DNA of 64,000 bases, taken from contig CAYPFJ010000013.1 of the NCBI GenBank assembly GCA_964409945.1, positions 1,996-65,995 on the forward strand, read 5' to 3'. The notes beneath the pieces are model-generated. The model had not been told where the DNA came from and searched no databases. It saw only the letters and a list, made by a program, of their open reading frames with translations. Positions 2,959 through 54,900 of this stretch are shown here, piece after piece (position 1 is the first letter of the stretch; each line of letters begins with the position of its first letter). The translations under genes were made by a program, and so were the position numbers. The stretch comes from an uncultured archaeon (GTDB lineage Archaea; Asgardarchaeota; Lokiarchaeia; Sigyniarchaeales; SOKP01).

Positions 2959-3066
2959 ATTAACTATTACCTTACTACTCAAAATTTCTATTTAAAAGTA
3001 TTAAAACTTTTAATCTTTCTGTTTATTATATAGATTTAAATCAAAATAAAATAATTGTGAATTTAT

Positions 3067-4521
3067 ATGGTTGAATTTAACCCAAAAGTGTTAAGTAAAG
3101 AGGAATTAAGTGCTATCTCAGGTGGAGTAAATGAAGAAGAATTATTATTATTTGATAAACATTTATTAGACAATTATTATGATAATAATGTGTTCATTGA
3201 AGCTAAAGAACCAGGGTCCCCTTGGGTTGTTGTAAAGGACTTTAAAACGGGAGAACAATCTGAAAAGTTTGATTGCACTGCTCAATATTGGTCATTAGCA
3301 TTAGGATTTGCTCATCCCGATGTAAATTATGCTGTGGCAGAACAAATGAAAAGATTTACTCATATTAAATCGGAAGGTGTATTTCCCTCCCGTGCTAAGT
3401 TTATCAATAAATTATCTGAATTATGTCCTGGTAGATTGAAAGGAGGAAGAGTTAAAATAAATAATGAAGGTGGGAGTTTAGCAGTTGAAGCAGCTGTAAA
3501 ATTCGCTTTAGTGGCATCTAAAGGTGGAGATCATTTCCTAACCTTCCGAGGTGGCTACCACGGAAATACCTTAGCTATGATAACAGCATCTCAACCTTTC
3601 CATACAATAACAAGATTTAGACCATTTGGCGTCGATTTTTTTACGCGAGTTCCACAACCTTATTGTTATCGATGTTTATGGAATTATAAAAATGGATTAT
3701 ATGGTAAACAAGATCCTAAATGTAATTTAGAGTGCTTTAATTTAGTTAAAGAATATTTAATGGGTCTAACTTCAAGAAAATTAGCAGGAGTTATATTGGA
3801 ACCTTGGCAGGCAGCAGGAGGTCATGTCCCATTTCCACCAGATTTTCTTGTTAAATTAAGAGAAGTTTGTGAACAAGAAAAGATCTTCATAATATATGAT
3901 GAATCGCAAACAGGTGTGTACAGGACAGGGAAATATTTTACTTTAACAGAAAAATATGAAAAGGAACTCGGAATTGATGTATCCCCTGATATGATGTGCT
4001 TCACAAAAGCTATTGGAGGAGGTTTTCCTTTAGGAGCTATGATTGTCTCAAATAAAATAAAAAAACGATTTGGCCCAACAGAAGATCATACTACATTTTG
4101 TAATACGCCAATAGGTTGTACAGCGGGTCTTGCTGCTATCATGGTTATTGAAAGAGCAAAGATTGGAGAGAATTGTGAAGAAAGAGGGAAGCAAATCACT
4201 AAACAATTAAAAGAACTTCAAGAGAAATATGATGTAATGGGTGATATTCGTGGTCCAGGATTATTCATAGGAATTGAGTTGGTTAAAGATCAAAAATCAA
4301 GAGAACCTTTTACAGAGCTGATGGAAGATATGCTTCATGAGGGTGTAAGACAAAATATACTTTTTGGACCAAGTATGCCCTATTTAAGTGGAACAGGAAA
4401 GTTGTTAAAGAGAAATTTAATAAAAATAAAGCCTCCACTCAATATTACTGAAGAAGATGCTGATTTTATCTGTGCTAAATTTGAAAGTGTACTAAAAACA
4501 TCAATTAACAATCTAAAGTAG
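3067..4521 (+). CDS. Class III PLP-dependent aminotransferase (acetylornithine/GABA aminotransferase family) with an unusual N-terminal extension
   Basis: Family-typical segments are YWSLALGFAHPDV, FRGGYHGNT and DESQTG, with the PLP-lysine context CFTKAIGGGFPLGA. The first ~22 aa are extra and contain VLSKEELSAISGG. Confidence 0.85.
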   Translation: MVEFNPKVLSKEELSAISGGVNEEELLLFDKHLLDNYYDNNVFIEAKEPGSPWVVVKDFKTGEQSEKFDCTAQYWSLALGFAHPDVNYAVAEQMKRFTHIKSEGVFPSRAKFINKLSELCPGRLKGGRVKINNEGGSLAVEAAVKFALVASKGGDHFLTFRGGYHGNTLAMITASQPFHTITRFRPFGVDFFTRVPQPYCYRCLWNYKNGLYGKQDPKCNLECFNLVKEYLMGLTSRKLAGVILEPWQAAGGHVPFPPDFLVKLREVCEQEKIFIIYDESQTGVYRTGKYFTLTEKYEKELGIDVSPDMMCFTKAIGGGFPLGAMIVSNKIKKRFGPTEDHTTFCNTPIGCTAGLAAIMVIERAKIGENCEERGKQITKQLKELQEKYDVMGDIRGPGLFIGIELVKDQKSREPFTELMEDMLHEGVRQNILFGPSMPYLSGTGKLLKRNLIKIKPPLNITEEDADFICAKFESVLKTSINNLK

Positions 4522-4528
4522 TTTTAAT

Positions 4529-5773
4529 ATGAATTCTCGAGAACGTGTACTCGCAAGTATAAACCATAAAGAACCTGACAGAGTACCGATTGATCTTGGC
4601 GCTTTACCAGTAACAGGAATTTCGGCAATTGCATATCATAACTTAAAGCATTATCTGGGAATGAACTCAGGGCATATTAGGGTTTATGATCTGATGCAAC
4701 AATTGGCTGTTCCCGAGAAAAATGTACTCGATTTATTTAAAGTAGACATTTTAGATGTTGGAAGTACTTTTAACACTAAAGATGAGGATTGGTGTGACAT
4801 ATATATAAATGGATATAATCTACAGTTCCCAAATTGGTTTCAACCAAGGCATAATCCTGACGATTCCTACGATGTTCTCCACCGTGATGGTACAGTAATT
4901 GCTAGGATGACGAAGGATGCATTAGTTTTTGATCAAACTTATTATCCATGTTTAGAAAATTATCCTGAAACATACAGTGAATTTCAAAAAATGGCTTCGA
5001 AAAATCCTTGGGTGGCTCAGGTAACACCTCCATTTAGTAATATTGGTCAAAAGAAATTTTGGAAAACTTTAAGAAAAAATGCTATTACGTTAAAAGAAGA
5101 ATCAAATAAAGTAATTGCACTCAATTTAGGCAGTACATCATTTGAATTAGCGAGCTCATTTAGAAGACTGGATAGATTTTTAATTGATTTAGTAAGAAAT
5201 ACGTCTAAAGTTGAAAAGTTTCTTGATTTTATATTGGAGTTCTTTTTTAACTCACTCAATGTAATATGTGGTTATGTGGGAGATATAATAGATATAATAA
5301 AAATTGGTGATGATCTTGGCGAAAACAAGGGTCCTTTTATTAGTCCCAAGATTTTTCGAGAAATTTTCAAACCCAGAATTACAGAGATTTGCGATTTTAT
5401 TAAGAAAAAAAGTACAATGAAAATTTTCTATCATTCCTGTGGCTCTATTGTACCTTTAATACCAGATTTAATCGACACAGGGATAGATATTCTCAATCCT
5501 GTACAAATTAACGCAAGAGATATGGCACCCAAATTTCTAAAGGAAAATTTTGGTGATGAAATTACATTTTGGGGTGGTGGTGCTGATACGCGTAATGTTA
5601 TCAATAGAAAAAGTCCCGAAGAAGTTAAAAAGCATGTATTAGAATTGCTTGAAATTTTCTTTCCTGGAGGAGGATATGTCTGGAATACAGTTCATAATAT
5701 TCTACCAGATGTACCACCACAAAACATAGTTGCCATGTTTGAAGCTATTGAGGATTTTAATGATAACCTCTAA
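4529..5773 (+). CDS. Uroporphyrinogen-decarboxylase (URO-D) family protein, MtaA/CmuA-like methyltransferase type
   Basis: N-terminus is RERVLASINHKEPDRVPIDLG and the C-terminal half has FYHSCGSIVPLIPDLIDTGIDILNPVQ, both typical of the URO-D fold family. It starts 7 nt after the aminotransferase stop, so it is probably co-transcribed. Confidence 0.75.
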   Translation: MNSRERVLASINHKEPDRVPIDLGALPVTGISAIAYHNLKHYLGMNSGHIRVYDLMQQLAVPEKNVLDLFKVDILDVGSTFNTKDEDWCDIYINGYNLQFPNWFQPRHNPDDSYDVLHRDGTVIARMTKDALVFDQTYYPCLENYPETYSEFQKMASKNPWVAQVTPPFSNIGQKKFWKTLRKNAITLKEESNKVIALNLGSTSFELASSFRRLDRFLIDLVRNTSKVEKFLDFILEFFFNSLNVICGYVGDIIDIIKIGDDLGENKGPFISPKIFREIFKPRITEICDFIKKKSTMKIFYHSCGSIVPLIPDLIDTGIDILNPVQINARDMAPKFLKENFGDEITFWGGGADTRNVINRKSPEEVKKHVLELLEIFFPGGGYVWNTVHNILPDVPPQNIVAMFEAIEDFNDNL

Positions 5774-20449: not shown

Positions 20450-22120
20450 TTATTTAGCTAAACACCAACCCTTCGGTTTAGCCCGAGAGTATTGAATTTT
20501 ACCTTGATCCTTTAGTAATGTAATTTCTTTTTCAATTTGAGTGTTAGAGAATCCTTTTTTTTGGATATCATTAACAAATTGAGCTTTTGTTTCAACAGCT
20601 TTTTGTTCCTTTAGATAAGCTAAAATTGTATCTTCTAATGACCCCGCAACACTCACTATTTCTTTAGGAACAGGTTTTGTCGCTTCGGGTTCAAGAGCAG
20701 CTCGTAATTTTTCCTTTATAGGTTCTACTGGTTTTTCAATAACTAATGGTTGGACTTTAGGTTTTGGTCGTTCCTTAACTACAATTTCTGCTTTAATTTC
20801 TTCAGGAATTTCTTTCTCTATTTCTTTTTCAGGTCGACTCCAAACGGGGAAAGTAATCTTTTCATACGTAACTGACTTTTGCGTTTTTAATAGTGTGAAT
20901 TCTTCTAATATTTCATCCTCTGAATATCCTAATTCTGATAATTCATTCATTAAATCTTTTAAATGCCCCTTTTCTTGCAAGCTGTTAAAAATATATTCTC
21001 TTATATTTGTTGGAACATCTTTTATTTGAGCTATTTGCTCAATTAAATCCTCTTTTCTACTTGTTTGTGTTTTGGGGATTTGAATGTTTTGAGGAATATC
21101 AAGTATTTCTTTTTGTCCCCATTCAAAATCAGTTACATTTCTGATTCTACGATCATAACCTCCAAATATAATATGCTTTAAATTTTGTTCTTTTCCTGAA
21201 ATAGAGCATACATTTTTTATCGATGACGCAACCTTAGTCTTCCATTTTAACTCAAAATCTTGAGAATTTAACGATTGATTATGAAAGACTTTTAAAGAAC
21301 CATCTGCACATCCAGCAACAATTTCCTTTGCATTATCACCGTCAATATCTTCAATTAATAATGAAACTGGACGTCCCTCATCAATTTCAATCTCTTTAAT
21401 AAGTTCACCTTTACAATTTAAAATCCTAATAAATGAATCATCAGTAGCTAATACGATCTCATTAAATCCATCATTAATAACATCTCCAACTTTGATATCA
21501 TTAATCTGAGTATTAAAATTGTTCTGCCAAGTAATATCTGGCATGTTTTCTTTAAATTGAATTAATTGAACCAACCCATTTTTAGTTCCAACTAATAATG
21601 CGTTAATAGGCTCATCGAGATCTGGTAATTTTAAATATCCTAATGTACAAGCTGTAACCCAAGAATCATAATAAAATGTATATTTTGGCTCTTTTGCTTT
21701 AATATCATCGAAAATTTTAAGTGTTTTATCTTCACTCCCAAAAATCATTTCAATATTCCCATCTTGAGTGAAGTCTCCCGCGATACAGCAATTTATCCTC
21801 TTGGAGGCTTTGTACCGCATCAATCCAGTCAGTTTGTTTTTTTCTATATTTAATTTCATAACCATAAAATTTCCATCGCCAGCTCCTACTAATATCTCAT
21901 CACATCCATCTCCATCTATATCAATTGGATAAGTGCAGCGACACCAGCCATCAAAAGCTCGTTCATCAAGTATATTATTTTCCTCATCCATTAGATAAAG
22001 AGTTTTATCATGTCCCCCAAATACAAGAAAATTTTCATCTTCACATTTCAAAATAGAACATGTTAATACGGCATCTGGACACTCAAACATCCAATTTAGC
22101 TGATAACGTTTTCTTAACAT
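20450..22120 (-). CDS. FG-GAP/integrin-alpha-like beta-propeller protein with a Pro/Glu/Lys linker and C-terminal winged-helix-like modules
   Basis: Repeated Ca-binding-type FG-GAP motifs: DIDGDGCDEILVGAGDG, AGDFTQDGNIEMIFGSEDK, VGDVINDGFNEIVLATDD and IEDIDGDNAKEIVAGCADG. Confidence 0.75.
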   Translation of the reverse strand: MLRKRYQLNWMFECPDAVLTCSILKCEDENFLVFGGHDKTLYLMDEENNILDERAFDGWCRCTYPIDIDGDGCDEILVGAGDGNFMVMKLNIEKNKLTGLMRYKASKRINCCIAGDFTQDGNIEMIFGSEDKTLKIFDDIKAKEPKYTFYYDSWVTACTLGYLKLPDLDEPINALLVGTKNGLVQLIQFKENMPDITWQNNFNTQINDIKVGDVINDGFNEIVLATDDSFIRILNCKGELIKEIEIDEGRPVSLLIEDIDGDNAKEIVAGCADGSLKVFHNQSLNSQDFELKWKTKVASSIKNVCSISGKEQNLKHIIFGGYDRRIRNVTDFEWGQKEILDIPQNIQIPKTQTSRKEDLIEQIAQIKDVPTNIREYIFNSLQEKGHLKDLMNELSELGYSEDEILEEFTLLKTQKSVTYEKITFPVWSRPEKEIEKEIPEEIKAEIVVKERPKPKVQPLVIEKPVEPIKEKLRAALEPEATKPVPKEIVSVAGSLEDTILAYLKEQKAVETKAQFVNDIQKKGFSNTQIEKEITLLKDQGKIQYSRAKPKGWCLAK

Positions 22121-22264
22121 AGGTTTTCAGAACTATGTATGATTATAGAAATTAATAGTAATTAAATTAAATTTCATTGTTTATTCATTTAATACTTATC
22201 TGTAAGATTATTAAACTATTATTGTAAAAAAAAAAATAAAAAAATAAAAAATATTAATTTTATA

Positions 22265-26575: not shown

Positions 26576-27931
26576 ATGCTGCGCCAAGTTTTTGTACTCC
26601 AAGGAAATGATATTATTTATAGAAGAGTTTATGGAAATGCGTTGAATAGTTCTGAGATTGAGGATATTAGTTTTAAGATTATAAGGGAGGCAAAAAGAAG
26701 TCTTGGTGAAACAATGGGATATTTTGATTTTATAAAATTTAGAGTATCGTATGATGTTGAACTTGAAAATAATTTAATTTTTCTTTTTATAACAGGATTA
26801 ATGGACGATTTTTATAGAGTAATCAAAACTCAGTTGATGAATTTTAAAAATCTATTCTTAAACCGCTTCAGTATTAAATTAAAGGATAATCAATCTCAGG
26901 ATTTAGATTTTAAAGGAATTAATGTAGCTCTTGATGAAATGCATAGAAATTTAAAACCTAAAATCGCAGTAGTAGGTTTTGCAGGTGTTGGTAAAACAAC
27001 TATCAAAAAACTAATAAAAATGGATGAGATTCCGCTTCAACATATTCCGACTATTACGGGGGAAATTGCTACTATTAAAATAGGGAAACTTTTTTTTCAT
27101 TTATTTGATTTTGCTGGATAGGAGCAATTTAAATTTCTTTGGAAAGGCTTTATAAAAGAAAGCGATGCAGTCCTTATTGTTACAGATTCTACACTAAAGA
27201 ATGTTGAGAAAAGCAAATTCTTTTTAGATTTAAAAGCTAAAGAAGTTCCTCATGCTCGGGCAGCTATTATTGGAAATAAGCAAGATTTACTTAATGCATT
27301 GAGTGTACAAGAGATTGAGACTCTCACGGGATTAAAAACTTATCCAATGGTAGCGAATAGAAAGGAAAATCGTAGTAAAATGATTCGAATTATCGCAGAT
27401 ATATTAGATATGAGTACGGAAGATTCTCCGTTATTGGCTGAATTATATAAGAGTACAGAAGTAAGTTATGAAACTTTATTCGGGTTAGAATTAGAATCAA
27501 CTCAAGAAGATTCCTTGATAGTAACAGAAGAACCAGTTCTTTTGAAAACTACTCATATTGAGAATAAAATCGATGTCAGCGATACTAGACGACGTATAGA
27601 TCAAATTCTTTCGGAAACTATTGTAGTAGAACCAACATTCTTTAAAGGAGCGAAAGTAATTGAAGAAAATCTAAAAATTCCTGTTGAGAATGCTTTAGTT
27701 TCTTCTGATTTATATACTGACTTTATGAAGACTAATTCATTTACATTGAATGAGAAATTAGGAATTTTATTTACTGCAATAAATTGTGTTTTTCTTACAG
27801 AAATCAAACCAAAAATATATCCACGATTCAGTTCTTTTTTAAGAAGTTACAAAATGGATGTATTTAACACTAAAGAAATAAATATTATTCGTAAATATTA
27901 TACAAAGATTTTGAAAAATTTGAAGAAATGA
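26576..27931 (+). CDS. Longin/roadblock-like domain + Ras-superfamily small GTPase + C-terminal extension, one reading frame interrupted by an in-frame TAG at 27119..27121
   Basis: G1 is VVGFAGVGKTT and G3 is DFAG-TAG-EQFKFLW. G4 is NKQD, 56 residues after G3, which is the Ras-like spacing. The track ORFs 26576..27121 and 27299..27931 are in the same frame with no other stop between them. Confidence 0.75.
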
Positions 27932-37641: not shown

Positions 37642-38220
37642 TCAAACTAATTCTTCTTTTTTAATCCAATCTCTTCTAAACAACCCGAATTGGTGGAAAT
37701 CAACATAGTTTCCATCGACATACATATCTTCTTTTAAAAGTCCTTCTTGTTGAAAGCCTAATTTTTCAGCTGCCCTAAGTAATCTTTTATTTGGATTGAT
37801 AATAGTTGCATATATCTTATGGAAATTTAATTCTGTAAATCCATAATTAATTAACATTTTGGCAGCTTCACCTATAGAACCTTTTCCCCAATAATCTGGC
37901 TCTCCGATTAAAGCACCTATAAAGGCATTACGATTTATCCAATTGATACGATTAAACCCGATACTACCGATAGGGCACTTATCATTTTTATGGTAGATCG
38001 TAAAATATACTCCCTCTTTTACACCATGTTCCGATGGAGGTTCGAACCATTTTTTAACTTCTTCAGGAGTTCTCGGCATAACGTGGTGAGCAAAATGACA
38101 TACTTCTGAATTATTATGCCATTTACAATATAAAGTAATCCATTTAGAATTTGGGGCTAATAAATCTATTCTTTCTCCCTCAATAAAAGGGAAAATTTGG
38201 ATCTCTTCTTTCTCCCTCAA
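37642..38220 (-). CDS. GNAT N-acetyltransferase, RimJ/RimL-like (array copy 1); 5' end remodelled by a 37-bp duplication, TTG start in the ORF track
   Basis: FIEGERIDLLAP...GEPDYWGKGSIGEAAKMLINYGF...NPNKRLLRAAEKLGFQQEG has the Acetyltransf_3-type layout. Confidence 0.8.
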   Translation of the reverse strand: MREKEEIQIFPFIEGERIDLLAPNSKWITLYCKWHNNSEVCHFAHHVMPRTPEEVKKWFEPPSEHGVKEGVYFTIYHKNDKCPIGSIGFNRINWINRNAFIGALIGEPDYWGKGSIGEAAKMLINYGFTELNFHKIYATIINPNKRLLRAAEKLGFQQEGLLKEDMYVDGNYVDFHQFGLFRRDWIKKEELV

Positions 38221-38251
38221 TAAAAGGGAAAATTTGGATCTCTTCTTTCTC
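38169..38251. repeat. Direct tandem duplication, 37-bp unit x 2.2 copies, spanning the 5' end of GNAT copy 1
   Basis: 38169..38205 is identical to 38206..38242, and 9 further nt repeat again. Confidence 0.95.
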
Positions 38252-38360
38252 TTCTTCCGTCATTTAAAACTACCAGAATATTTTTAGAAATTAATATAAT
38301 TAATATATATATTTAAGAGATTGAATAGATTAAAATCTTAGGAATTAAATTTGACTAGTT

Positions 38361-38942
38361 TTAATCATTTGATTTTTCTTTTCTTTTTATCCAATCTTCC
38401 TTTAATAAACTATAAGTTTTTACTCCAAGGTGTTTACCGTCAAGATAGAATTCATCTTCTTTTATGCCTTCAAACTGAAAGCCACATTTTTCAGCAACAC
38501 TCCAAGACCCAATGTTTTCCACACAAACTCCACCGTGTAATTTATTGAGATTTAATTCATTGAAAGCGTATTCATTAAGTAATTCTGTAGCCTCTGTAGC
38601 AATTTTTTTACCCCAATAATCAGGTTCTCCAATTCGTATAAAAGCATTTGCCCATCCGTTAATCCAATCTATCCAACCCACGCCTACATGACCAATAGGC
38701 TTTTTATCCTTATTATGCCAGATTTCGAAAGATACAAAATAAGGCATTTCCCAATCTCGTGGTTCAAACCACTTTTTAACATTCTCTACTCTACTTGGTA
38801 TAATATTCCTCGCATATTTACGTACTTCAGGATCATTGAGCCATTTAACATACAAGTTTATATTTTCTAAATTTTGAGGTATAAAACTTATAGTTTCTCC
38901 TTCAATAAAGACAGGAACCTCTTTATTTTCCTTTTCTTCCAT
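38361..38942 (-). CDS. GNAT N-acetyltransferase, RimJ/RimL-like (array copy 2)
   Basis: VPVFIEGETISFIP, LNDPEVRKYARN, IDWINGWANAFIRIGEPDYWGK, SWSVAEKCGFQFEG. Confidence 0.85.
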   Translation of the reverse strand: MEEKENKEVPVFIEGETISFIPQNLENINLYVKWLNDPEVRKYARNIIPSRVENVKKWFEPRDWEMPYFVSFEIWHNKDKKPIGHVGVGWIDWINGWANAFIRIGEPDYWGKKIATEATELLNEYAFNELNLNKLHGGVCVENIGSWSVAEKCGFQFEGIKEDEFYLDGKHLGVKTYSLLKEDWIKRKEKSND

Positions 38943-38993
38943 TATTATTGTTAAATCGTAATTTTTTTGGTTTTATATTTAATTTTAATTAAT

Positions 38994-39572
38994 TTATTTC
39001 TTTGAATTTAACCAATCTTCCTTTGATAAACGATACAGCTTTCCATTAATATATTTTCCATCAATAAATAAATCATTTTTCTCTAATCCCCGATACTTAA
39101 ATCCAATTTTCTCAGCAACGCTCCATGAACTTATGTTTTCAACAGCTGCTCCTGCTTGTAATATATTAAGATTCAATTCATTAAATGCATATTCTATAAT
39201 CATTCTTGCACCTTCTGTAGCTATATCTTTTCCCCAATATTCTGGTTCTCCAATGAAAAGAAATATATTTGCCCATCCATTAACCCAGTCAATCCCTGAC
39301 AAGCCTACTTCACCTATTGGTCTTTTATCTTTTTTATGCCAAAGTTCAAAAGCAATACCTCTGGGGATTCTCCCCTCTTGGGATTCAAACCATTTTTTAA
39401 TATCGTCACTAGTAACTGGCATTACCCATCGAGCAAATTTTCTAACTTTTGGGTGATTTAACCATTTTAAATATAAATTGATATGTTCTGAATTTGGAGG
39501 AATAAGACTAATGATTTTTCCATCGATAAAAACTGGAACTTCTTTATCTTCTATTACTTCTTTCTCTCTCAT
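38994..39572 (-). CDS. GNAT N-acetyltransferase, RimJ/RimL-like (array copy 3)
   Basis: Same motif set (IDWVNGWANIFLFIGEPEYWGK). I prefer the ATG at 39572, which forms an ATGA start/stop overlap with copy 4, over the track start at 39590. Confidence 0.85.
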   Translation of the reverse strand: MREKEVIEDKEVPVFIDGKIISLIPPNSEHINLYLKWLNHPKVRKFARWVMPVTSDDIKKWFESQEGRIPRGIAFELWHKKDKRPIGEVGLSGIDWVNGWANIFLFIGEPEYWGKDIATEGARMIIEYAFNELNLNILQAGAAVENISSWSVAEKIGFKYRGLEKNDLFIDGKYINGKLYRLSKEDWLNSKK

Positions 39573-40141
39573 AACTTTCTTTCTCTCCACTCATCTTTTA
39601 ATAGATAGTATGTTTTAACATCAACATATTCTCCATCTACAAAAAGCTCATCCTTTCTGATTCCTTCAAAAGTAAATCCTCTTTTTTCAGCTACTGTCCA
39701 AGACCCAATATTAGCAACTATCGCTCCAGCATGTAATTTATGAAGATTTAGTTCACTAAAAGCATATTCAATGATCAGATCTGTAACTTCAGTGGCAATA
39801 TTTTTATTCCAATAATCAGGTTCGCCAATAGTCATCCCTACATTCGCCCAACCATTTACCCAATCTATACCAGTTAAGAAAGTATGACCAACTGGCTTAT
39901 TATCCATTTTATGCCAAATTTCAAGTACAATAAAATTCCGAACTCTTCCTTCTTGAGGTTCAAACCATCCTTTCGCGTCATTTACTGTTATGGGTATCAT
40001 ATTACGAGCATATTTACGGACTTTTGGGTCATTTATCCATTTTACATATAAATTTACTCGTTCTAAGCTCTGAGGTATTAAATAGACATTTTGCCCTTCA
40101 ATAAACAAAGGAATTTCTTGTTTTTCCATGCTGTTTATCAC
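39569..40141 (-). CDS. GNAT N-acetyltransferase, RimJ/RimL-like (array copy 4)
   Basis: IPLFIEGQNVYLIP, IDWVNGWANVGMTIGEPDYWNK, SWTVAEKRGFTFEG. Confidence 0.85.
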   Translation of the reverse strand: MINSMEKQEIPLFIEGQNVYLIPQSLERVNLYVKWINDPKVRKYARNMIPITVNDAKGWFEPQEGRVRNFIVLEIWHKMDNKPVGHTFLTGIDWVNGWANVGMTIGEPDYWNKNIATEVTDLIIEYAFSELNLHKLHAGAIVANIGSWTVAEKRGFTFEGIRKDELFVDGEYVDVKTYYLLKDEWRERKL

Positions 40142-40160
40142 AATTTAATGAGATTATTAT

Positions 40161-40763
40161 TTAATCCTTTTTCAATTCTCTAGATTTTATCCAATCTTCT
40201 TTTGACAACCGAAATATTTTTGCATCAACATATTTTCCATCAACATACATTTCATGCTTTCTTATTCCATCAAGTACAAACCCAATCTTCCCTGCTACAG
40301 ACCATGAGCCAATATTATCAACAGCAACTCCTCCGTGTATTTTATTTAGTTTCAACTCATTAAATGCATATTCCATGAGCAATTCAGTAGCTTCCGTCCC
40401 AATATCTTTATTCCAATAATTTGGTTCTCCAATTTGAAGAAAAGCATTTGCCCACCCATTTACCCAATCTATATGGCTTAATCCAATTTGACCTATTGGT
40501 TTCTTATCTTCTTTATGCCAAACGTCTAATGATACAAAATCGCTAATTTCTTCACTTCTACTTTCTGACTTTTTTTTCTGTTCATCTATTGTCCTTGGTA
40601 TTATATTACGAGCATATTTACGGACTTTAGGATGATTCTTCCATTTTACATATAAATTCGCATATTTGGAGTTTCGAGGGCAAAGATCTATTCTCGATCC
40701 TCGAATAAATGGAAATTCTTCCGTTTCCTCATTTTGTTTAGATTCTTCTTCTTTCTTCGCCAC
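40161..40763 (-). CDS. GNAT N-acetyltransferase, RimJ/RimL-like (array copy 5)
   Basis: FPFIRGSRIDLCP, IDWVNGWANAFLQIGEPNYWNK, SWSVAGKIGFVLDG. Confidence 0.85.
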   Translation of the reverse strand: MAKKEEESKQNEETEEFPFIRGSRIDLCPRNSKYANLYVKWKNHPKVRKYARNIIPRTIDEQKKKSESRSEEISDFVSLDVWHKEDKKPIGQIGLSHIDWVNGWANAFLQIGEPNYWNKDIGTEATELLMEYAFNELKLNKIHGGVAVDNIGSWSVAGKIGFVLDGIRKHEMYVDGKYVDAKIFRLSKEDWIKSRELKKD

Positions 40764-40799
40764 TAAATTAACCTCTTAATTTTAAAAATTAGGGAAACA

Positions 40800-41357
40800 T
40801 TATTTCATCCAATCGTCTTTAAATATTGAATATTCGAGTACATCCATATGCTCTCCATCAATATAAACTTCTTTCTTAAGTGTAATTTCAAGCTTAAAAC
40901 CTAATTTCTCTGCTATTTGTATCGAAGCTTTATTTAGTGCAAACAAACGTGCCGTGATTTTGTGTAAGTTTAACTCTTTATAAGCATAATCTAAAACCAA
41001 CTTTCCTACTTCAGTTCCAATGTGTTGTTTCCAATATTTTGGATCAATTATATAAGATATATGTGCATTGCGAGTAAACCATTGAATTCTAAATAAATTT
41101 GCCAAACCTATTGGTTTTTTATCTTTTTTATGCCATATCTCGAAGAAGATATCCTCTTTTACAGCCTCTTTCTTTGGTTCGAACATTTTCTTTACCTCAT
41201 CAATTGTTTGAGGCATATTAAATTTTGTAAATTTCCTAGTTTCTGGATGATTCATCCAACCAGCATATAGGTTAACGTGATCTGCATTTGCTACACAAAG
41301 AGAGACAGTTTCTCCTTCAACAAATGGTAACACTATTTCCTCTTTTCCTTCTGACAT
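40800..41357 (-). CDS. GNAT N-acetyltransferase, RimJ/RimL-like (array copy 6, the most divergent together with copy 1)
   Basis: LPFVEGETVSLCV, IQWFTRNAHISYIIDPKYWKQ, ASIQIAEKLGFKLE. Confidence 0.85.
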   Translation of the reverse strand: MSEGKEEIVLPFVEGETVSLCVANADHVNLYAGWMNHPETRKFTKFNMPQTIDEVKKMFEPKKEAVKEDIFFEIWHKKDKKPIGLANLFRIQWFTRNAHISYIIDPKYWKQHIGTEVGKLVLDYAYKELNLHKITARLFALNKASIQIAEKLGFKLEITLKKEVYIDGEHMDVLEYSIFKDDWMK

Positions 41358-41610
41358 ACTTCAAAAAATTTATATTTTTTATTGTTATAGTTCTAAAATG
41401 AGCCATAATATATTAAATCTAAGATGTGTGGAAATATGTTGCAGTTTATTTTAAGAGATATTTTATTAAAATACCCAAATCAAAAATTAGATATACTTTA
41501 CGGTATTGTTAGACATCGAGTCTGAAATTTTTAAGCCCTTTATTAGTAAAAGGAAAAAATTGAGAAGATTTTATAATTTAATTATATCTTAATTTAGATT
41601 ATAGAAAAAA

Positions 41611-43366: not shown

Positions 43367-43939
43367 TCAGAGTGTTTTACGCATTACGTAATAATCTTTA
43401 AATTCTTTATAAATAGAAAATTCCTCAGATGCGTATAATGAAAATGGTCCTCGATAACTATGAGCATCTGATAATTCTTCTCCTTTCCTTGGGTATACTT
43501 CAATTAAATCATAACCTTTATCCTTCGAGCTAGAGCAAGCATAATTCAGAAGTTGTTTGGCTACACCTTGTTTTCTATATGAAGGAGCGACTACAAAGCA
43601 AATAAGTGAAGCGATTTTAGCCTCTGATTCTTCTTCATAAGGGATTTTTGCATAATTTTCCTTAATATTAATGTTACACCATCCAATTGGTTTTCCATCT
43701 AAATATGCCATATATCCATTCATCTTTTCAGAAAGGATAAGCTCTTTTGAAGCTTTTCTATTTTGTTCTGCAGTTCTTTTATTAAATTGTTTATTGGTTC
43801 CAGCAAAATGATAAAAATGACAGTAACAAATAGCCCAATCAGGATTATCAGAAAATGCAACTTTATCAAAAAAATATAGAAAATCTTCAAGAAGATCAGG
43901 AGTTAAAGACTTTATCTGAATATCCAATTTTGTAGTCAC
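43367..43939 (-). CDS. GNAT family N-acetyltransferase (unrelated to the six-copy array)
   Basis: The acetyl-CoA motif A is VVAPSYRKQGVAKQLL. Confidence 0.8.
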   Translation of the reverse strand: MTTKLDIQIKSLTPDLLEDFLYFFDKVAFSDNPDWAICYCHFYHFAGTNKQFNKRTAEQNRKASKELILSEKMNGYMAYLDGKPIGWCNINIKENYAKIPYEEESEAKIASLICFVVAPSYRKQGVAKQLLNYACSSSKDKGYDLIEVYPRKGEELSDAHSYRGPFSLYASEEFSIYKEFKDYYVMRKTL

Positions 43940-43966
43940 CTCAAGTATAGAAAAAGAGATTGAAGA

Positions 43967-45526
43967 TTAATATTTTTCATCTATTGCAGACAACATAACT
44001 TCTAATTGGTCGAATATATCTAAACGAAAGTCAAGCCCTATTCTAAAGAATAAGAGATCTACTACTTTTTTATCAATACGTTCATCAATATTTAAATGAT
44101 CAATTATTTCTGACCAATTAATACTCTCAGAAGCTCGTATTCCAATTAAAATTACAACATTCTTTTTCCCATTTTCAACAATTTTTAGAATCATTTCTCT
44201 AAAATTTGGATCAATTTGCTCTTTGGAACGCACATCAAAAACACAAAAGATTCCATCAGAACTGGAAATATCATCAAGAGCAGAATATTCATGTTGTTTT
44301 AAAATCATCCCATTCGTATATTGGTAAACCTGTTCATCATCATAATCTCTTATCAATGACTTTTCTCCTAATTTGCTTATACTAGTAATTATTTGTAACC
44401 CAGGACTCCAAACCGAGCTTTCAGTTATAAATGATAAAGTGAAAACAATTTTTTTCTTCAGTATAGAGTTAATTATATTAAATAATAATTCACTACGCCT
44501 TTCATCTTCAATTTCTTTACTCTTCATTACATAGTGATATGAAATTAAGTTAAATGCATCCTCAACATTACTTCCAGTTAACGCACTTGTCTCAATATAT
44601 GACAACTTAATTTTTTCGCTTTCTGAAAGGTTGTTCGCTAATTTAGCACCTTCTTGATAATAGACTTTTCTATCTTCAAGCAAATCAGTCTTGTTTCCAA
44701 CTATTACAATTGGTATGTCTTCTCCTAATGTAAAGAGCCTTAGTTCCTCATACCAACTTTTAACATTTTCGAAAGATTCACGATTAGCAAGATCAAATAC
44801 GATGAAAGCTGCTTGAGCGCCTAAATAATAGATTTTTCGAAATCTTTTGAAATATTTCTGAGCACCAAGATCATACAAACTTACGCCTATTTTGTTTCCA
44901 AAAAATTCAAACTCATGAGACAAGATATTAATGCCAATAGTTGCTCTATAATCTGTTGTATATCTTTTTTCAACAAATCTACGGATGATTGAAGTTTTTC
45001 CAACTTCGTGATCTCCCAAAATTACGAATTTAAAACGATATTCCCCATCTAGACCTAACTCCATCTGGTATAACTGATTTTTCAATCGTTCAACGTTGCC
45101 TGCTTCATATTCAAAATTTGGAATTTCTACTTGAATTAAATCGCCCTCTTCAGCTGTGAGAATTTGAGCCGTTTTTTCTGCAAGAAAAAATCCGTAGGGA
45201 GAAATTTTTTCAATTGAAGCCATACTTTCTAAGACCAAACTTATAATTCTTTCTTCATCAACAGAAATAAATAGTAGACGATGATCTTCGGTATCGAAAC
45301 TTGCAGTACCAAATTTTTGAAATTCAAATTCACTACGCATTCTTTCTAATATGGGATTGATTATTGACGTTAAAACTGAAACGAGTTCAATGTCAACATC
45401 TTTTCTTTTTTCTCCCGCAATAACTAATCCTTCATTATCAGAAACAATAACAGATTCTACTTCTCTATTAGATTCGAGAAACTTATTAAATAATTCTCTA
45501 AAGAGCTTATTTTTCTGTATCGTCAA
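43967..45526 (-). CDS. Roadblock/LC7 (MglB-like) domain + Rab/Ras-like small GTPase + C-terminal degenerate GTPase-like domain
   Basis: The Roadblock part is VESVIVSDNEGLVIAGEKRKDVDIELVSVLTSIINPILERM. G1 is ILGDHEVGKTS, G3 is YDLGAQ, G4 is GNKTD and G5 is ETSA. The C-terminal segment GIFCVFDVRSKEQ...VVILIGIRAS mimics the G3-G4 strands without a P-loop. Confidence 0.85.
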   Translation of the reverse strand: MTIQKNKLFRELFNKFLESNREVESVIVSDNEGLVIAGEKRKDVDIELVSVLTSIINPILERMRSEFEFQKFGTASFDTEDHRLLFISVDEERIISLVLESMASIEKISPYGFFLAEKTAQILTAEEGDLIQVEIPNFEYEAGNVERLKNQLYQMELGLDGEYRFKFVILGDHEVGKTSIIRRFVEKRYTTDYRATIGINILSHEFEFFGNKIGVSLYDLGAQKYFKRFRKIYYLGAQAAFIVFDLANRESFENVKSWYEELRLFTLGEDIPIVIVGNKTDLLEDRKVYYQEGAKLANNLSESEKIKLSYIETSALTGSNVEDAFNLISYHYVMKSKEIEDERRSELLFNIINSILKKKIVFTLSFITESSVWSPGLQIITSISKLGEKSLIRDYDDEQVYQYTNGMILKQHEYSALDDISSSDGIFCVFDVRSKEQIDPNFREMILKIVENGKKNVVILIGIRASESINWSEIIDHLNIDERIDKKVVDLLFFRIGLDFRLDIFDQLEVMLSAIDEKY

Positions 45527-45678
45527 GAATTTCTCTCCCTTCTTAAATTATAACCTAATAATCTTATTCTTATCTATATAATAAATAATTATCATTTGAA
45601 TTTTTATTATTATTGATTATTAATAATCACTGATATTCTTTTATTGCATGAATTCAAGATACTTATTATTAGTAAGGC

Positions 45679-47265
45679 TTAAAGATACTTAATTGTGTTT
45701 AACATAACCTTTAATTGATCGTAAATTTCTAGTCTATATTCAAGTCCTATTTTGAAGAATAATAATGATACCATCTTTTTTTCCAATAATTCGTTAACAC
45801 TAAAGTCTTCCATGATTACTGACCAGTCGCTTTTATCTGACACCCTAATTCCTATCAATACCACTTTATTCTCTCCAATTTCGTTTATAATTTTTGCAAC
45901 AACATTTTTCCAATCTTGGATTATATGTTCTTTTTCTCGCGCATCGAAAATACAAAATACTCCATCAGAACTAGTAACATCAAAATTGTTGTAAAGAAAA
46001 TTTTTTACTATTACTCCATTTGAAAATTTATAGAATTTCTCATCCCTTTCATCCTTTATTTTCTCACATTCGTTTGAAATATTGATTTCAGAGAGTATCT
46101 GAAGCCCAGGGCTCCAAAATTCATTTTCTGATATAACTGTTAAGGTTAATAATGAGCTTTGATCTTCTACTTCTTGTTTTCTTTTCATTATAATCAAATT
46201 AAGTTCTTCTAATAGATCTTGCTTGACAATATCCTCTTCTTCTTCTTTACTTTTAGAGATATAATGAAATGCTATTAAAGTAAAGGCATCTTCCACATTT
46301 TCCCCCGATAAAGCACTAGTTTCAATATAGGAGATTTTAATGTTAGGTTTTTGGGATAAGCTATTTACTAGTTGTACACCATCTTGATATTCTACCACTC
46401 GTTGTTCCTTCAAATCACATTTATTTCCAATAATTATGATAGGAATTTCCCTACCACTAATAAATTCTTCCAATTCAGCATACCATTGTTTTACATTCTC
46501 ATAGGACTCTTTCTTTGTTAAATCAAATACAATAAATGCTGCTTGGGTACCTAAATAATAAGTTTGGCGAAAGCGTTTGAAATAAACTTGAGCTCCTACG
46601 TCCCACAGACTGTAAATGATTTCATTTCCAAAAAATTCTATAGAATGGGATAAAATGTTTAATCCTATTGTAGCACGATAATCATGAGAAAATCTATTTT
46701 CTACAAAACGTCGTACTAAAGATGTTTTACCTACTTCATGATCTCCAATGATTACAAATTTAAATCTATATTTTCCTCCTTGATCTAATCTCATTTGATA
46801 AATTTGATTCTTCACCCTATCATTCCGCGATATTTCATCAGTTTCATATTCAAAATTTGGAATTGCAAGTTGGATCTTATCACCCTCTTCTGCGTTAAGA
46901 ATTTGTACAGATTTTTCTGCTAAGAGATATGCATATGGACTAGCTTTATCGATCGACGCTAAATTATTTAATACGACACTAAGAGTTCTATGCTCATCTA
47001 AAGAAATAAATAGTAATCTGTAGAATTCTGTATCGAAGCTTGCAGTACCAAATTTTTTGAACATAAATTCATCACGAATTCTCTCAACAATCGGATTTAT
47101 GATAGAAGTTAAAACTGAGACGATTTCCATATCTACATCGCTTCTTTTTTCACCTGCAATAACTAAACCCTGTTGGTCACTTACAATTACAGCTTCTACA
47201 TCTTTATTTACTTCTAAGAATTGGTTGAATAATTCGATAAAGAGTCTATTCCTATTTATTGACAT
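45679..47265 (-). CDS. Roadblock/LC7 domain + Rab/Ras-like small GTPase + degenerate GTPase-like domain (tandem paralog)
   Basis: VEAVIVSDQQGLVIAGEKRSDVDMEIVSVLTSIINPIVERI. G1 is IIGDHEVGKTS, G3 is WDVGAQ, G4 is GNKCD and G5 is ETSA. The architecture matches the neighbour. Confidence 0.85.
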   Translation of the reverse strand: MSINRNRLFIELFNQFLEVNKDVEAVIVSDQQGLVIAGEKRSDVDMEIVSVLTSIINPIVERIRDEFMFKKFGTASFDTEFYRLLFISLDEHRTLSVVLNNLASIDKASPYAYLLAEKSVQILNAEEGDKIQLAIPNFEYETDEISRNDRVKNQIYQMRLDQGGKYRFKFVIIGDHEVGKTSLVRRFVENRFSHDYRATIGLNILSHSIEFFGNEIIYSLWDVGAQVYFKRFRQTYYLGTQAAFIVFDLTKKESYENVKQWYAELEEFISGREIPIIIIGNKCDLKEQRVVEYQDGVQLVNSLSQKPNIKISYIETSALSGENVEDAFTLIAFHYISKSKEEEEDIVKQDLLEELNLIIMKRKQEVEDQSSLLTLTVISENEFWSPGLQILSEINISNECEKIKDERDEKFYKFSNGVIVKNFLYNNFDVTSSDGVFCIFDAREKEHIIQDWKNVVAKIINEIGENKVVLIGIRVSDKSDWSVIMEDFSVNELLEKKMVSLLFFKIGLEYRLEIYDQLKVMLNTIKYL

Positions 47266-47453
47266 GAATTTTTTTTACTCTTGTATATTTTTATTGGTGT
47301 TGTTTTCCTTATAATACCTATAAAAAAAGTTATTTTTATTATTTATTAAATCGTTGTTTCGAAATACATATTCTTATAAATTGCTATTTTTTTTAATTTA
47401 TTATATTACACCTTGAGTACCGAAAATTTTCAAAAAAAGTATAATAAAAAATA

Positions 47454-48041
47454 ATGCCTTCTTGTATAATTTGCCATTTAAATATAAATGAGAACACAGA
47501 TTCTTTTAAATCTTGTAAGAATTTACATCTTGTTCACAAAACCTGTCTAGCTGAATGGTTATTACACTCACAAAATTGTCCATTATGTAGTGAGCCATAT
47601 CCTCAGAGTTTAATTGATCAGTTTAAGGATTATAAAGATATGAAAGAAGAAGAAAAACAGGCTGCATTAAATAAAAAATTACAAAAAGAATCAAGAAAAA
47701 AAATGCAACAAGTTGCAGATAAAATCCTAATTCTTAAATTAGCTGAATCTATTGAACATTTGATTAAAGTAGAAAAGTTTGATGAGGCAATAGAAAAACT
47801 TTTAGATATATATAATGAAAATTCTACTGATGAGAGAGATTTAAATATTCTTTATCTATTAGGAAAAGCAAATTATCTAAAAGGACGATATGACATGGCA
47901 ATCAACTTTTTCTTTAAATTAGTTAAAATTAGATATAATTATCCTGATGGATTTTTATATTTAGGAAAATCGTATGAAAAACTTGGTCTCAAAGATAAAG
48001 CCCAATGGGCTTATGATAGGATTTCTTCCCCCCAAGACTAG
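47454..48041 (+). CDS. RING-H2 zinc-finger protein with a C-terminal TPR-like helical region
   Basis: C4-x2-C7-x13-C21-x3-H25-x2-H28-x2-C31-x10-C42-x2-C45 fits the RING-H2 consensus exactly, including the CLxxW context (LVHKTCLAEWLLHSQNCPLC). The C-terminal part (YLLGKANYLKGRYDMAINFFFKLV...YLGKSYEKLGLKDKAQWAY) is TPR-like. Confidence 0.75.
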   Translation: MPSCIICHLNINENTDSFKSCKNLHLVHKTCLAEWLLHSQNCPLCSEPYPQSLIDQFKDYKDMKEEEKQAALNKKLQKESRKKMQQVADKILILKLAESIEHLIKVEKFDEAIEKLLDIYNENSTDERDLNILYLLGKANYLKGRYDMAINFFFKLVKIRYNYPDGFLYLGKSYEKLGLKDKAQWAYDRISSPQD

Positions 48042-51698: not shown

Positions 51699-51945
51699 CT
51701 TTATAATGATTTTTAGTAATTAGATTTCGTTGCAAGTCTAAATATGAAGGTTTGATATTTAAATATTTACGTTTCTGTCAGAAAAAATAAATGATTTTAT
51801 TACCATAAAACACTTTTAGAAGTTTTAATAGAGATCCAGTTAGTTTATAGGTTTAAAGTTGATCAAAATATATAAATATAATAATAAGAACTTGATATTC
51901 AATCCAATTTTTTAAAATAAAAAATTAAAAAAAATAAGATGTAAA

Positions 51946-54900
51946 ATGTGTATTCTTAAATCAAACTATAATAAAAAGTCGATTATTTTCCTGTTTATAA
52001 TTACTGGTTTTCTCTTTTACCCAAATATAGCAAATATAGAAGCCAAAATTAAAAAAGTAGAAGATAAGTCAAGTTTCCAAGAAATTAATCTTAATCAATC
52101 GCAATACGATACAAAGAAGGTTCCAAAATGGGAGGAACAATATTTAAATATTGATCAAGACCAAAATGGTATAGATGATAAACTCGACGTTAGGTTAAAA
52201 CATTTATCACAATTTAGATATATTGATGAAGAAAGGGAAAGTTCAAGAAATATGAATAATATTGATGATGTCTTTGGAATTAGGTCTCAAAAAACAGAAA
52301 AAATCACATTTGAAGATGTTCCTATTATTATTTCGTTCCCTAAAGGAAATTACGATTCAAATTTACTTTTATTTAAAGCTCTAGGAGGTAGGATAAAATC
52401 AACCTATACTACAGCGATAAACGGATTCTCAGGTAGTATTAGCTGTGATTCCTTAATTGAATTTTGTACAATGTTGAAGCAAAATGAGATACAATTTTTA
52501 GTTGAGGAAGATAAACTCTATAACGCACAATTATATTATACGGGTAGAAATATGAATCTTAGACCTTATGTTTGGAATACACTATCGTATGATGGAGATG
52601 AGTATAGCTCAATTGCTATAATTGATACAGGAATAGATGATTCACACAACTTCTTCTCTCCTGGTTATTCAGATGGTGATTTTTCCTACAAAATTGTAGG
52701 GTGGAGGGATGAAGTAAATGGAGTACTTACTCCTTATGATGATAATGGTCACGGTTCCCATTGTTCTGGAATTTCAACAGGAGAAGGAAGCCCCAATTAC
52801 GACATATCAGGACGATCTGTTGCCACTGCCGCGTATGGTTTCAATTATACCGGTTGGTATATAGAATCAGGAGTATATGAATTTAATTGGGCAAGATTTA
52901 ACGTAACAGATCCTGGTATAATAGACCTTTTCTGTGAATTTGATGATTTTACTCCAGGTGTTGATGATGTTGATTTTTGGGTATATCTTTATTATGGAGA
53001 AACTATAGTTGATTCGTATGAGATAAATTCTGACTCTTGGTCTCATACGCTTTCGTACACTGCAAACAGTAGTACCCTAGGGATATATTCTTTTAGATTT
53101 ATAATGAATCTAATTGACAATAATGGAGATTCTTTAATTGGTAATTTTACATCTAGGTTCAGAAGCGAAATACATTGGCCTTTTAACCCATTTCTTTTTG
53201 GGAGTGGAGATCCATGGCAAGGAGTAGCTCCTGATGCTCATCTTGTTGGGGTTAAGGTGCTTGACCAAGAAGGTTCTGGCTGGAGTTCGGATATAATCGA
53301 TGGTATAAATTGGATAATAAATAACAAGATGATTTATAATATAACTACAATATCCATGAGCCTTGGAGGCGGACCAGGTGACTTAGCATTGATTAATGCT
53401 GTAAATAATGCTGTTGAGAATGGAATTGTAACCGTTGTTGCGGCAGGAAATTCTGGTCCAGGATATAATTTTATTGGATCTCCTGGAGATGCAGATAATG
53501 TAATAACGGTTGCTGCAATGAGTATAAATGACGAGATAACTGACTACAGTAGTCAAGGTGGTTTATCATATACGGGAAAAACTATTAAACCTGATATAAC
53601 GGCACCTGGTGGAAGTGTTAATAATTTGCAAATGTTTTCTACTGATACAAATGATAATGATGCTTATGGTATGTATCCTACTGACGGCTATGCAAATGAT
53701 ATGGAGGGTGCTCAAGGAACTTCAATGGCAACTCCTGCTGTCGCTGGTGCCTCAAACTTATTAATTGAAGCTTTAGGCGGTCATGAAAACTGGAATTATA
53801 CCGCAACCGAAGCTAAAAGAGTTAAAGCATTGTTATTAATGTCAGCTACTGAAACTTTTCCATTACTAAGAGAAACTCCTTATAGTCTTTATTCACCTGT
53901 TCTTAATCGTGGTGGTAAAGATGTACATGAAGGATATGGAAGGCTTAATATTGATATTGCAATAGAAGCATACACTCAAAAACTGAATTTAGGGGCACAA
54001 TGTAATGCTTGGATCTCAAGTAGTTCTGATAATTCATTCAATAAACATGGTTTAGGCTGTTATGTAAATCTTATTAAAGGAAATTCCTATATTTTTACCT
54101 TAGATGTCCCAAATGGAGCAGATTTTGATTTTCATTTATATTCTAATAGTCCATCCCCAATAGGAGAACCTATTATGGTAGCTTCAAGTACTTCAACTGG
54201 TTTAGGAAAAGATGAAGTGATAACTTTTACAGCAGCAGAAACAAGTAAGTATTATTTAATTGCGAAAGCAATTTCTGGTGAAGGAAATGCGGTTATCTCT
54301 TATCCTATTCTTGATCATGATATACATGTTTTTTTGCAAGCTCCTACTACTCCAGAATTTAATATTACGTATGTAATTAATGCAACTGTAGTCAATACTG
54401 GTATCAATGCAGAAGCTAATGTTGATCTGATATTGTACCTTAATGGTGTGGTTATAAATTCTACTTCTTTATCTACTCTTCCTGTCGGTGCAAATAAAAC
54501 AATAAGTTATGAATGGAAACCAATTGTCTATAAAACTTACAATTTCACATGTTATTCTCCACCGATACCAGGTGAAACTATATTTGTAAATAATATAGCT
54601 ACGAAGTTAGTAACACTTTCTACCTTAAGAAACTACACCATGGATATAGGTAATCCTTATACTTGGATAGATGCTTCTGGTGGTCAAGAGTTAATTTTAA
54701 CGGATGATGATTATTCAGCAATACCTCTGCCTTTTGAATTTCAGTTTTATAATGAGACATTTTCAACTATCTATATAAGTTCAAATGGATACCTCAGTTT
54801 CACCGATACATCACCTTATTGGTTTTATAATATTCCTTTCCCTTCAAGTAATCCCTATCATGCATACATGATTTCTCCATTTTGGGATGATCTAAACCCC

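Follow-up and report, generated by a model that had tools for sequence, protein, structure and literature searches.

An Amber Codon at the Catalytic Glutamine of a Longin/Arf-like GTPase Gene

The window (the whole 64-kb stretch of DNA that was analyzed) has a GC content of ~30%, typical of a Loki-type Asgard genome, and carries on its forward strand a GTPase gene whose reading frame is interrupted by an amber codon. The frame opens with an ATG at 26576, runs through 181 sense codons to a TAG, and continues for another 269 sense codons to a TGA at 27929-27931. The gene and its parts are listed below, with coordinates referring to the window and residues numbered as in the uninterrupted protein.

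26576..27931, forward strand: interrupted 451-residue longin/Arf-like GTPase gene (more than 48 full-length orthologs of ~451 aa, 62-94% identity)
26576..26950, forward strand: N-terminal longin-like domain, residues 1 to ~125, beta-beta-alpha-beta-beta-beta-alpha (AlphaFold pLDDT ~85-90; Foldseek matches to longin folds in the PDB)
26957..27118, forward strand: N-terminal half of the G domain, residues 128-181; contains G1, switch I (PTITG), and the DFAG portion of G3 (Pfam, alignment, PDB profile)
26975-27001, forward strand: P-loop GFAGVGKTT (G1), residues 134-142
27119..27121, forward strand: premature amber codon TAG in place of the G3/switch II catalytic Gln182; ancestral codon CAG
27122..27445, forward strand: second half of the G domain, residues 183-290, downstream of the stop (Pfam, alignment, AlphaFold)
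27275-27286, forward strand: G4 motif NKQD, residues 234-237
27446..27700, forward strand: variable linker, predicted to be disordered, residues ~291-375 (pLDDT <50 at 295-297, 303-337, and 344-368; poorly conserved alignment columns)
27701..27928, forward strand: conserved helical C-terminal domain, residues ~376-451 (helices 377-384, 391-410, 419-424, and 432-450, pLDDT 80-91; conserved alignment columns)

Positions 27107-27136 of the window read GAT TTT GCT GGA TAG GAG CAA TTT AAA TTT, i.e., D F A G stop E Q F K F. When the family profile is aligned with PDB chains, the interrupted codon falls on the Gln of the Arf motif DVGGQD, which is Gln71 of Arf1. An earlier note on this DNA, made from the sequence alone, had placed the stop at the catalytic Gln of the G3 motif; the codon reading and the alignment with Arf1 both bear this out. 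The same note had described G1 and G4 as intact and correctly spaced and had pointed to a long C-terminal extension. All of this is found: the P-loop and NKQD lie where listed, NKQD following 56 residues after Asp178, and the extension is present. The window allele itself does not encode the DxxGQ signature of G3, since DFAG is followed directly by TAG, whereas all orthologs have DFAGQ at this place; by descent, the gene is nonetheless a member of an Arf-like family.

Architecture and Relatives of the GTPase

With the internal stop read as Gln, the match to the Pfam Arf model (PF00025) covers residues 123-255 and spans the position of the stop (E = 1.1e-20; 74.3 bits versus a cut-off of 22.3); the next-ranked models are Roc and Ras. 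A protein search with the GTPase returned 1007 relatives. The named orthologs are annotated as "ADP-ribosylation factor-like protein" and come from Promethearchaeota, Lokiarchaeota, Odinarchaeota, or Hermodarchaeota MAGs. The G domain is nearly invariant among orthologs with 62-94% identity; the P-loop GFAGVGKTT and NKQD are invariant in 46 homologs, and the 46 aligned members of the family, with identities as low as 42%, all have Gln182. One member of this Asgard-specific family, with 51% identity, lies on a contig labeled "Candidatus Nanopelagicaceae bacterium" (L032, DATKTW010000113.1), which is probably mis-binned.

A full-length AlphaFold model was available as that of a 94%-identical ortholog (P0001, mean pLDDT 76). 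It comprises an N-terminal alpha/beta domain, the G domain, a disordered stretch at ~295-368, and a helical C-terminal domain at 377-450. Foldseek neighbors of the G domain are the Asgard protein GerdArfR1 (8oum) and the eukaryotic Arl1 and Arf1. In a model of the 181-residue product that ends at the TAG, the N-terminal domain was grouped with the folds of delta-COP, AP sigma subunits, VAMP7, TRAPP subunits, SRX, and Sec22b, in agreement with its earlier description as longin-like. We conclude that the gene belongs to a conserved Asgard family in which a longin-like domain is followed by an Arf-like G domain, a disordered linker, and a helical C-terminal domain. The first reading of the locus had approached the G3 motif by way of Ras and Rab; the assignment as a GTPase motif stands, but not the Ras- or Rab-like type, the G domain being Arf-like by profile as well as by fold.

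Arf1 and Arl1 share G1, G3, and G4 with the family (Pfam Arf E = 1e-20; PDB profile E ~1e-20; Foldseek TM ~0.75, target-normalized), and Q71L locked mutants, altered at the residue homologous to the interrupted codon, occur among several matched PDB entries. In Arf1 Q71L the Gln is substituted, whereas in the window allele its codon is a stop. Two features set the window GTPase apart from Arf proper: a longin-like alpha/beta domain (residues 1-125) takes the place of the N-terminal amphipathic (often myristoylated) helix of Arf, and a linker and helical domain of together 160 residues extend the protein beyond the G domain. GerdArfR1 (PDB 8oum/8oun), likewise of Asgard origin, is the best match among solved structures (profile E = 1.6e-21, fold E = 5.7e-11, 29% identity), but it is a single domain of ~175-190 aa, compared with 451 aa and extra N- and C-terminal domains in the window family.

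Two paralogs deviate at G3 by substitution. Locus L068 (1501-2436) has DFAGK and therefore lacks the catalytic Gln; L065 (1501-2370) may be a pseudo-GTPase, as its G3 has degenerated to DLKET.

The Same Amber Codon Is Found in Independent Samples

The truncated 181-aa ORF is on record for 16 contigs. All 10 of the contigs listed carry the TAG and an intact downstream frame. Five derive from as many JGI samples (3300031257, 3300031698, 3300031585, 3300031255, and 3300031277) and five from SRA runs (SRR8557363-5, SRR8556609, and SRR9710702), the two sets having been assembled by different pipelines. Each of the 10 matches the window at 100% identity over 2.0-6.5 kb, which makes them copies from a single clonal population that add no evolutionary depth. 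A Gln version of this population's allele was absent from a collection of 5.8 billion proteins, in which the best match is 94% identical.

The source is metagenomic and is known here from assemblies rather than reads, so one might suppose that the organism truly has CAG and that the TAG arose in sequencing or assembly. With the identical TAG in 10 samples and two pipelines, and with no CAG version of the allele in the protein collection, we find this scarcely credible. The premature stop, as judged against full-length orthologs, is reproduced in independent data; the TAG is genuine, and an assembly artifact is ruled out for practical purposes.

The Ancestral Codon Is CAG

Related loci were drawn from 185,579 species-representative genomes and from the JGI metagenome collection. 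Two syntenic sister loci, L011 from a JGI sample of the same accession series and L013 from MAG SRP185410_co1_442, are 95.8% and 96.5% identical to the window at the nucleotide level, and both have CAG at the G3 codon. The nearest named relative, "Promethearchaeia archaeon ABR06" (GCA_029856155.1; 87% protein identity, syntenic), has CAA. One C>T transition on a short branch therefore accounts for the TAG. Both the one-step derivation from CAG that had been proposed and the expectation that orthologs would have CAG at this codon are borne out by the two nearest sisters, and the wider family agrees in having a sense codon throughout: among related loci, where 83 G3 motifs were read, CAA occurs 60 times, CAG 22 times, and AAA once, and a stop is found in none.

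The pattern FDFAG-TAR-EQFK gave no match in the 185,579 species genomes or the JGI metagenomes, versus 14 metagenome contigs for the control pattern FDFAG-CAR-EQFK. The scans did not recover the window population's own JGI contigs either, which means that the collections do not hold this population or mask it. A UAG conserved among orthologs is thus seen neither in the 83 motifs nor in the two collections, and a conserved recoding site was rejected as an explanation.

Codons Downstream of the Stop Show No Measurable Decay

No further stop and no frameshift occur in the codons after the TAG. Values of dN/dS for codons 183-451, calculated by the Nei-Gojobori method, were as follows.

Window versus the two sisters: 0.29-0.34
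Among the three intact genes: 0.18-0.28
Window versus ABR06: 0.23
Sister L013 versus ABR06: 0.23

With ABR06 as the outgroup, 5-8 downstream amino-acid changes fall on the window branch and 6 on the sister branch. The five window-branch changes that could be cleanly polarized are all conservative (V>A, N>S, D>E, L>V, and F>Y). Relaxed selection was not measurable in codons 183-451, by a test that is of low power here, since the sequences had probably diverged for the most part before the mutation arose. A downstream dN/dS near 1, which the earlier note had named as speaking against its reading, was not observed; the value is ~0.3, with the same low power for so young a lesion. The lack of secondary decay agrees with a very young lesion without being positive evidence for one, and, as far as codon comparison can tell, an intact downstream part with a dN/dS of ~0.3 would fit continued selection as well as recency.

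TAG Is an Ordinary Terminator in the Window

TAG terminates 6 of the 42 window genes (14%). In the aminotransferase, catalase, and PepX genes, the Pfam domains end 3-8 residues before the TAG, and the terminal TAG of PepX is conserved in MAG ABR06. Elsewhere among the ~45 window genes there is no mid-gene TAG, and the distance to a back-up in-frame stop is not significantly shorter for TAG than for TAA or TGA (p = 0.29). A genome-wide TAG-to-Gln code, of the code 15-like kind found in some phages and ciliates, was rejected: TAG ends six genes, and the one in the GTPase gene is the single mid-gene TAG in ~45 genes.

An in-frame UAG in an archaeal gene is a hallmark of pyrrolysine (Pyl) use, and we therefore considered decoding by a dedicated suppressor encoded elsewhere in the genome, either the pyrrolysine system (pylT/pylS) or a tRNA-Gln(CUA). 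The examined DNA is 64 kb of that genome, and it contains, at 4517-5773, a gene with weak likeness to MtaA/URO-D methyltransferases. The locus resembles the UAG-containing genes of Pyl users (Methanosarcina mtmB/mtbB/mttB; Thg1 of M. acetivorans) in having an in-frame UAG in an archaeal ORF with an intact downstream part. It differs from them in that its UAG is not conserved in orthologs and replaces an ancestral Gln; the site is Gln in all orthologs, with CAG in the sister population. Moreover, the 64-kb window yielded no pyl genes, no suppressor tRNA, and no tRNA-CUA, its sole tRNA being Arg-CCT, and TAG is a frequent terminator there rather than a depleted one, with no second in-frame TAG. 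Among Asgard archaea, the Pyl machinery is reportedly confined to Sifarchaeia. Nothing in the 64 kb points to Pyl or another suppressor elsewhere in the genome, and we regard a dedicated suppressor as highly improbable.

The gene at 4517-5773 (forward strand) encodes a URO-D family protein whose matches to MtaA/MtbA-type methylcobamide methyltransferases are weak and sub-threshold. The class-III aminotransferase gene upstream of it (3061-4521) ends in a TAG that overlaps the start of the URO-D family gene.

Read-through of the UAG

Leaky or programmed read-through of the UAG would yield some full-length GTPase, as a low-dose Gln variant or as a GTPase-deficient "locked" variant. It would be in keeping with the wholly intact downstream frame (omega ~0.3), with the presence of the allele in all 10 samples listed, and with the location of the stop exactly where a substitution locks Arf and Ras proteins. 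The intact frame is, however, equally expected for a very young lesion. A PYLIS-like or other read-through-stimulating RNA structure was not apparent, as shuffled sequences fold at least as well as the 122 nt that begin with the TAG (z = +0.96), and an Rfam scan of the window returned nothing but a tRNA. TAG is, in addition, found in none of the 83 related G3 motifs and is a common, conserved terminator in the window. Basal read-through rates in other organisms are well below 1%. On balance, we consider read-through unlikely.

In E. coli and yeast, near-cognate decoding of UAG mostly inserts Gln. Near-cognate decoding by tRNA-Gln would therefore often restore the wild-type residue and supply a small dose of normal protein rather than a GTP-locked one. 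The proposal in the earlier note that read-through leads to a GTP-locked form is not sustained: TAG is a normal terminator, it is not conserved at this site, and the window offers no suppressor tRNA or stimulatory RNA structure. A stronger version, in which the UAG is partly decoded to give a naturally selected regulatory or "locked" GTPase variant and the allele is not a knock-out, appears quite improbable to us. In that case, tRNA-Gln would provide a low dose of the wild-type protein, and an unrecognized suppressor would produce a hydrolysis-deficient switch. Were read-through to occur, the locus would be a natural experiment on an Asgard homolog of the eukaryotic Arf switch.

The Product Ending at the Amber Codon

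In the model of the 181-aa product, residues 1-126 have a pLDDT of ~85-90 and residues 129-181 a pLDDT below 50; the half G domain is therefore not expected to fold on its own. After the TAG, the frame contains no ATG, GTG, or TTG until a TTG at 27299, 59 codons further on and already past NKQD. The remainder of the G domain can therefore not be made separately, and a split gene with a restart was rejected for the same reason. Annotators should be cautious here, since the 181-aa ORF and the 194/210-aa ORFs are all pieces of a single gene.

The truncated longin protein might itself be under selection, as a domain-liberating truncation, possibly together with a separately translated C-terminal fragment. 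Its longin-like domain (residues 1-126) is confidently predicted to fold alone, longin domains are stand-alone regulators in eukaryotes, as the PDB matches illustrate, and the allele persists over all samples listed. Residues 129-181 would, on the other hand, remain attached as a tail that is unfolded in the model, the C-terminal fragment would lack a start, and no such split is seen in any relative. We judge a selected truncation to be very unlikely.

The Position of the Stop and Other Lesions in the Family

Single-base routes to a stop were counted in the ancestral-like gene L011. There are 200 such routes over 160 codons; 16 are transitions, 12 of these 16 lie at Gln codons, and CAG>TAG at Q182 is one of the 16. 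Depending on the strength of transition bias, a random nonsense mutation would land on the Q182 codon with a chance of 0.5-6%. Because Gln codons give nearly all transition routes to a stop, mutational bias makes a coincidence of position easier. For a finding picked out after the fact, such a position of the stop is uncommon without being extraordinary.

Unrelated lesions were also found in MAG and metagenome sequences of the family's other members. An ortholog with 62% identity (L024; 1618-1620 in JAGXNO010000029.1, Promethearchaeota MAG bin60) has an in-frame TAA in place of the invariant Lys40 in a frame of 450 codons that is otherwise intact; it is a second, independent nonsense allele of the family. 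A paralog, L070, has a TAA. L084 (Ga0114925_10218259) has a frameshift near residues 171-173, beside the site of a T8 run in the window, and L069 has a frameshift in a contig with 2.5x coverage. All four resemble the window allele in that a single disabling lesion interrupts an otherwise intact ORF where relatives have a sense codon. They differ in that the lesions are at other positions and involve other stop codons, and reproducibility is known for the window lesion alone. The window lesion is also the only one found in the family that lies at the catalytic residue.

At least 10 MAGs have two family loci each, including the sister MAG (L013 and L035). By analogy with these sister genomes, paralogs of the same longin/Arf architecture may buffer the loss of one gene.

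The TAG Is Probably a Recent Nonsense Allele

We think it probable that the TAG represents a recent null or strongly hypomorphic allele, an ordinary knock-out of a conserved longin/Arf-like GTPase, and that the position of the stop on the catalytic Gln is most likely a coincidence rather than a recoding event. On this account, a CAG>TAG transition would have occurred recently and become fixed in one clonal Promethearchaeia (Loki-type Asgard) population. Termination at the UAG is presumably efficient, so translation would normally end there and release a 181-residue product of ~21 kDa, in which the longin-like domain could fold and the half G domain could not. This product would probably not function as a GTPase. 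Loss of the gene is presumably tolerated, as sister genomes carry longin/Arf paralogs, and the locus would in effect be a young unitary pseudogene.

Several observations count against a knock-out. The conservation of the family is very strong, and loss of the gene is therefore not expected to be neutral. The allele occurs in 10 samples and has therefore not been quickly purged. To these we add the chance of 0.5-6% of striking the catalytic residue and the fact that the sequence seen is 64 kb of the genome, the rest of which may encode a suppressor tRNA or Pyl genes.

Three outcomes had been put forward earlier for this locus: a truncated protein, a recent inactivation, and a read-through product locked by the change at the catalytic position. 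Our analysis favors recent inactivation, from which it follows that the truncated 181-aa protein would be the sole abundant product, so the first two outcomes would hold together, and the read-through lock finds no support. If a knock-out is the correct reading, a Loki-type population in nature can do without this conserved longin/Arf-like GTPase or with much less of it. As it stands, the event would be a strain-level loss-of-function allele in an uncultured archaeon and matters little.

Other Genes in the Window

The window also encodes Roadblock-Ras GTPases, an LRR protein, a BBS7-like propeller, and a RING-TPR protein. Genes that stand out are listed below.

20450-22126, reverse strand: 558-aa beta-propeller protein with BBS7 and BBS2 (BBSome) propellers as its best Pfam matches (E = 4.8e-21)
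37642-41360, reverse strand: six GNAT (Acetyltransf_3) paralogs in a row
43367-43966, reverse strand: a seventh GNAT gene nearby
43967-45547 and 45679-47274, both reverse strand: tandem genes for proteins of ~526-531 aa with a Ras-family G domain (Pfam Ras E ~1e-44)
47448-48041, forward strand: RING-finger and TPR protein
51916-56664, forward strand: 1582-aa subtilase with CARDB and Kre9/KNH-like domains

The first protein of the tandem Ras pair also has an N-terminal Roadblock/LC7 match. The beta-propeller locus is syntenic in MAG ABR06 (L012:3901-5571).
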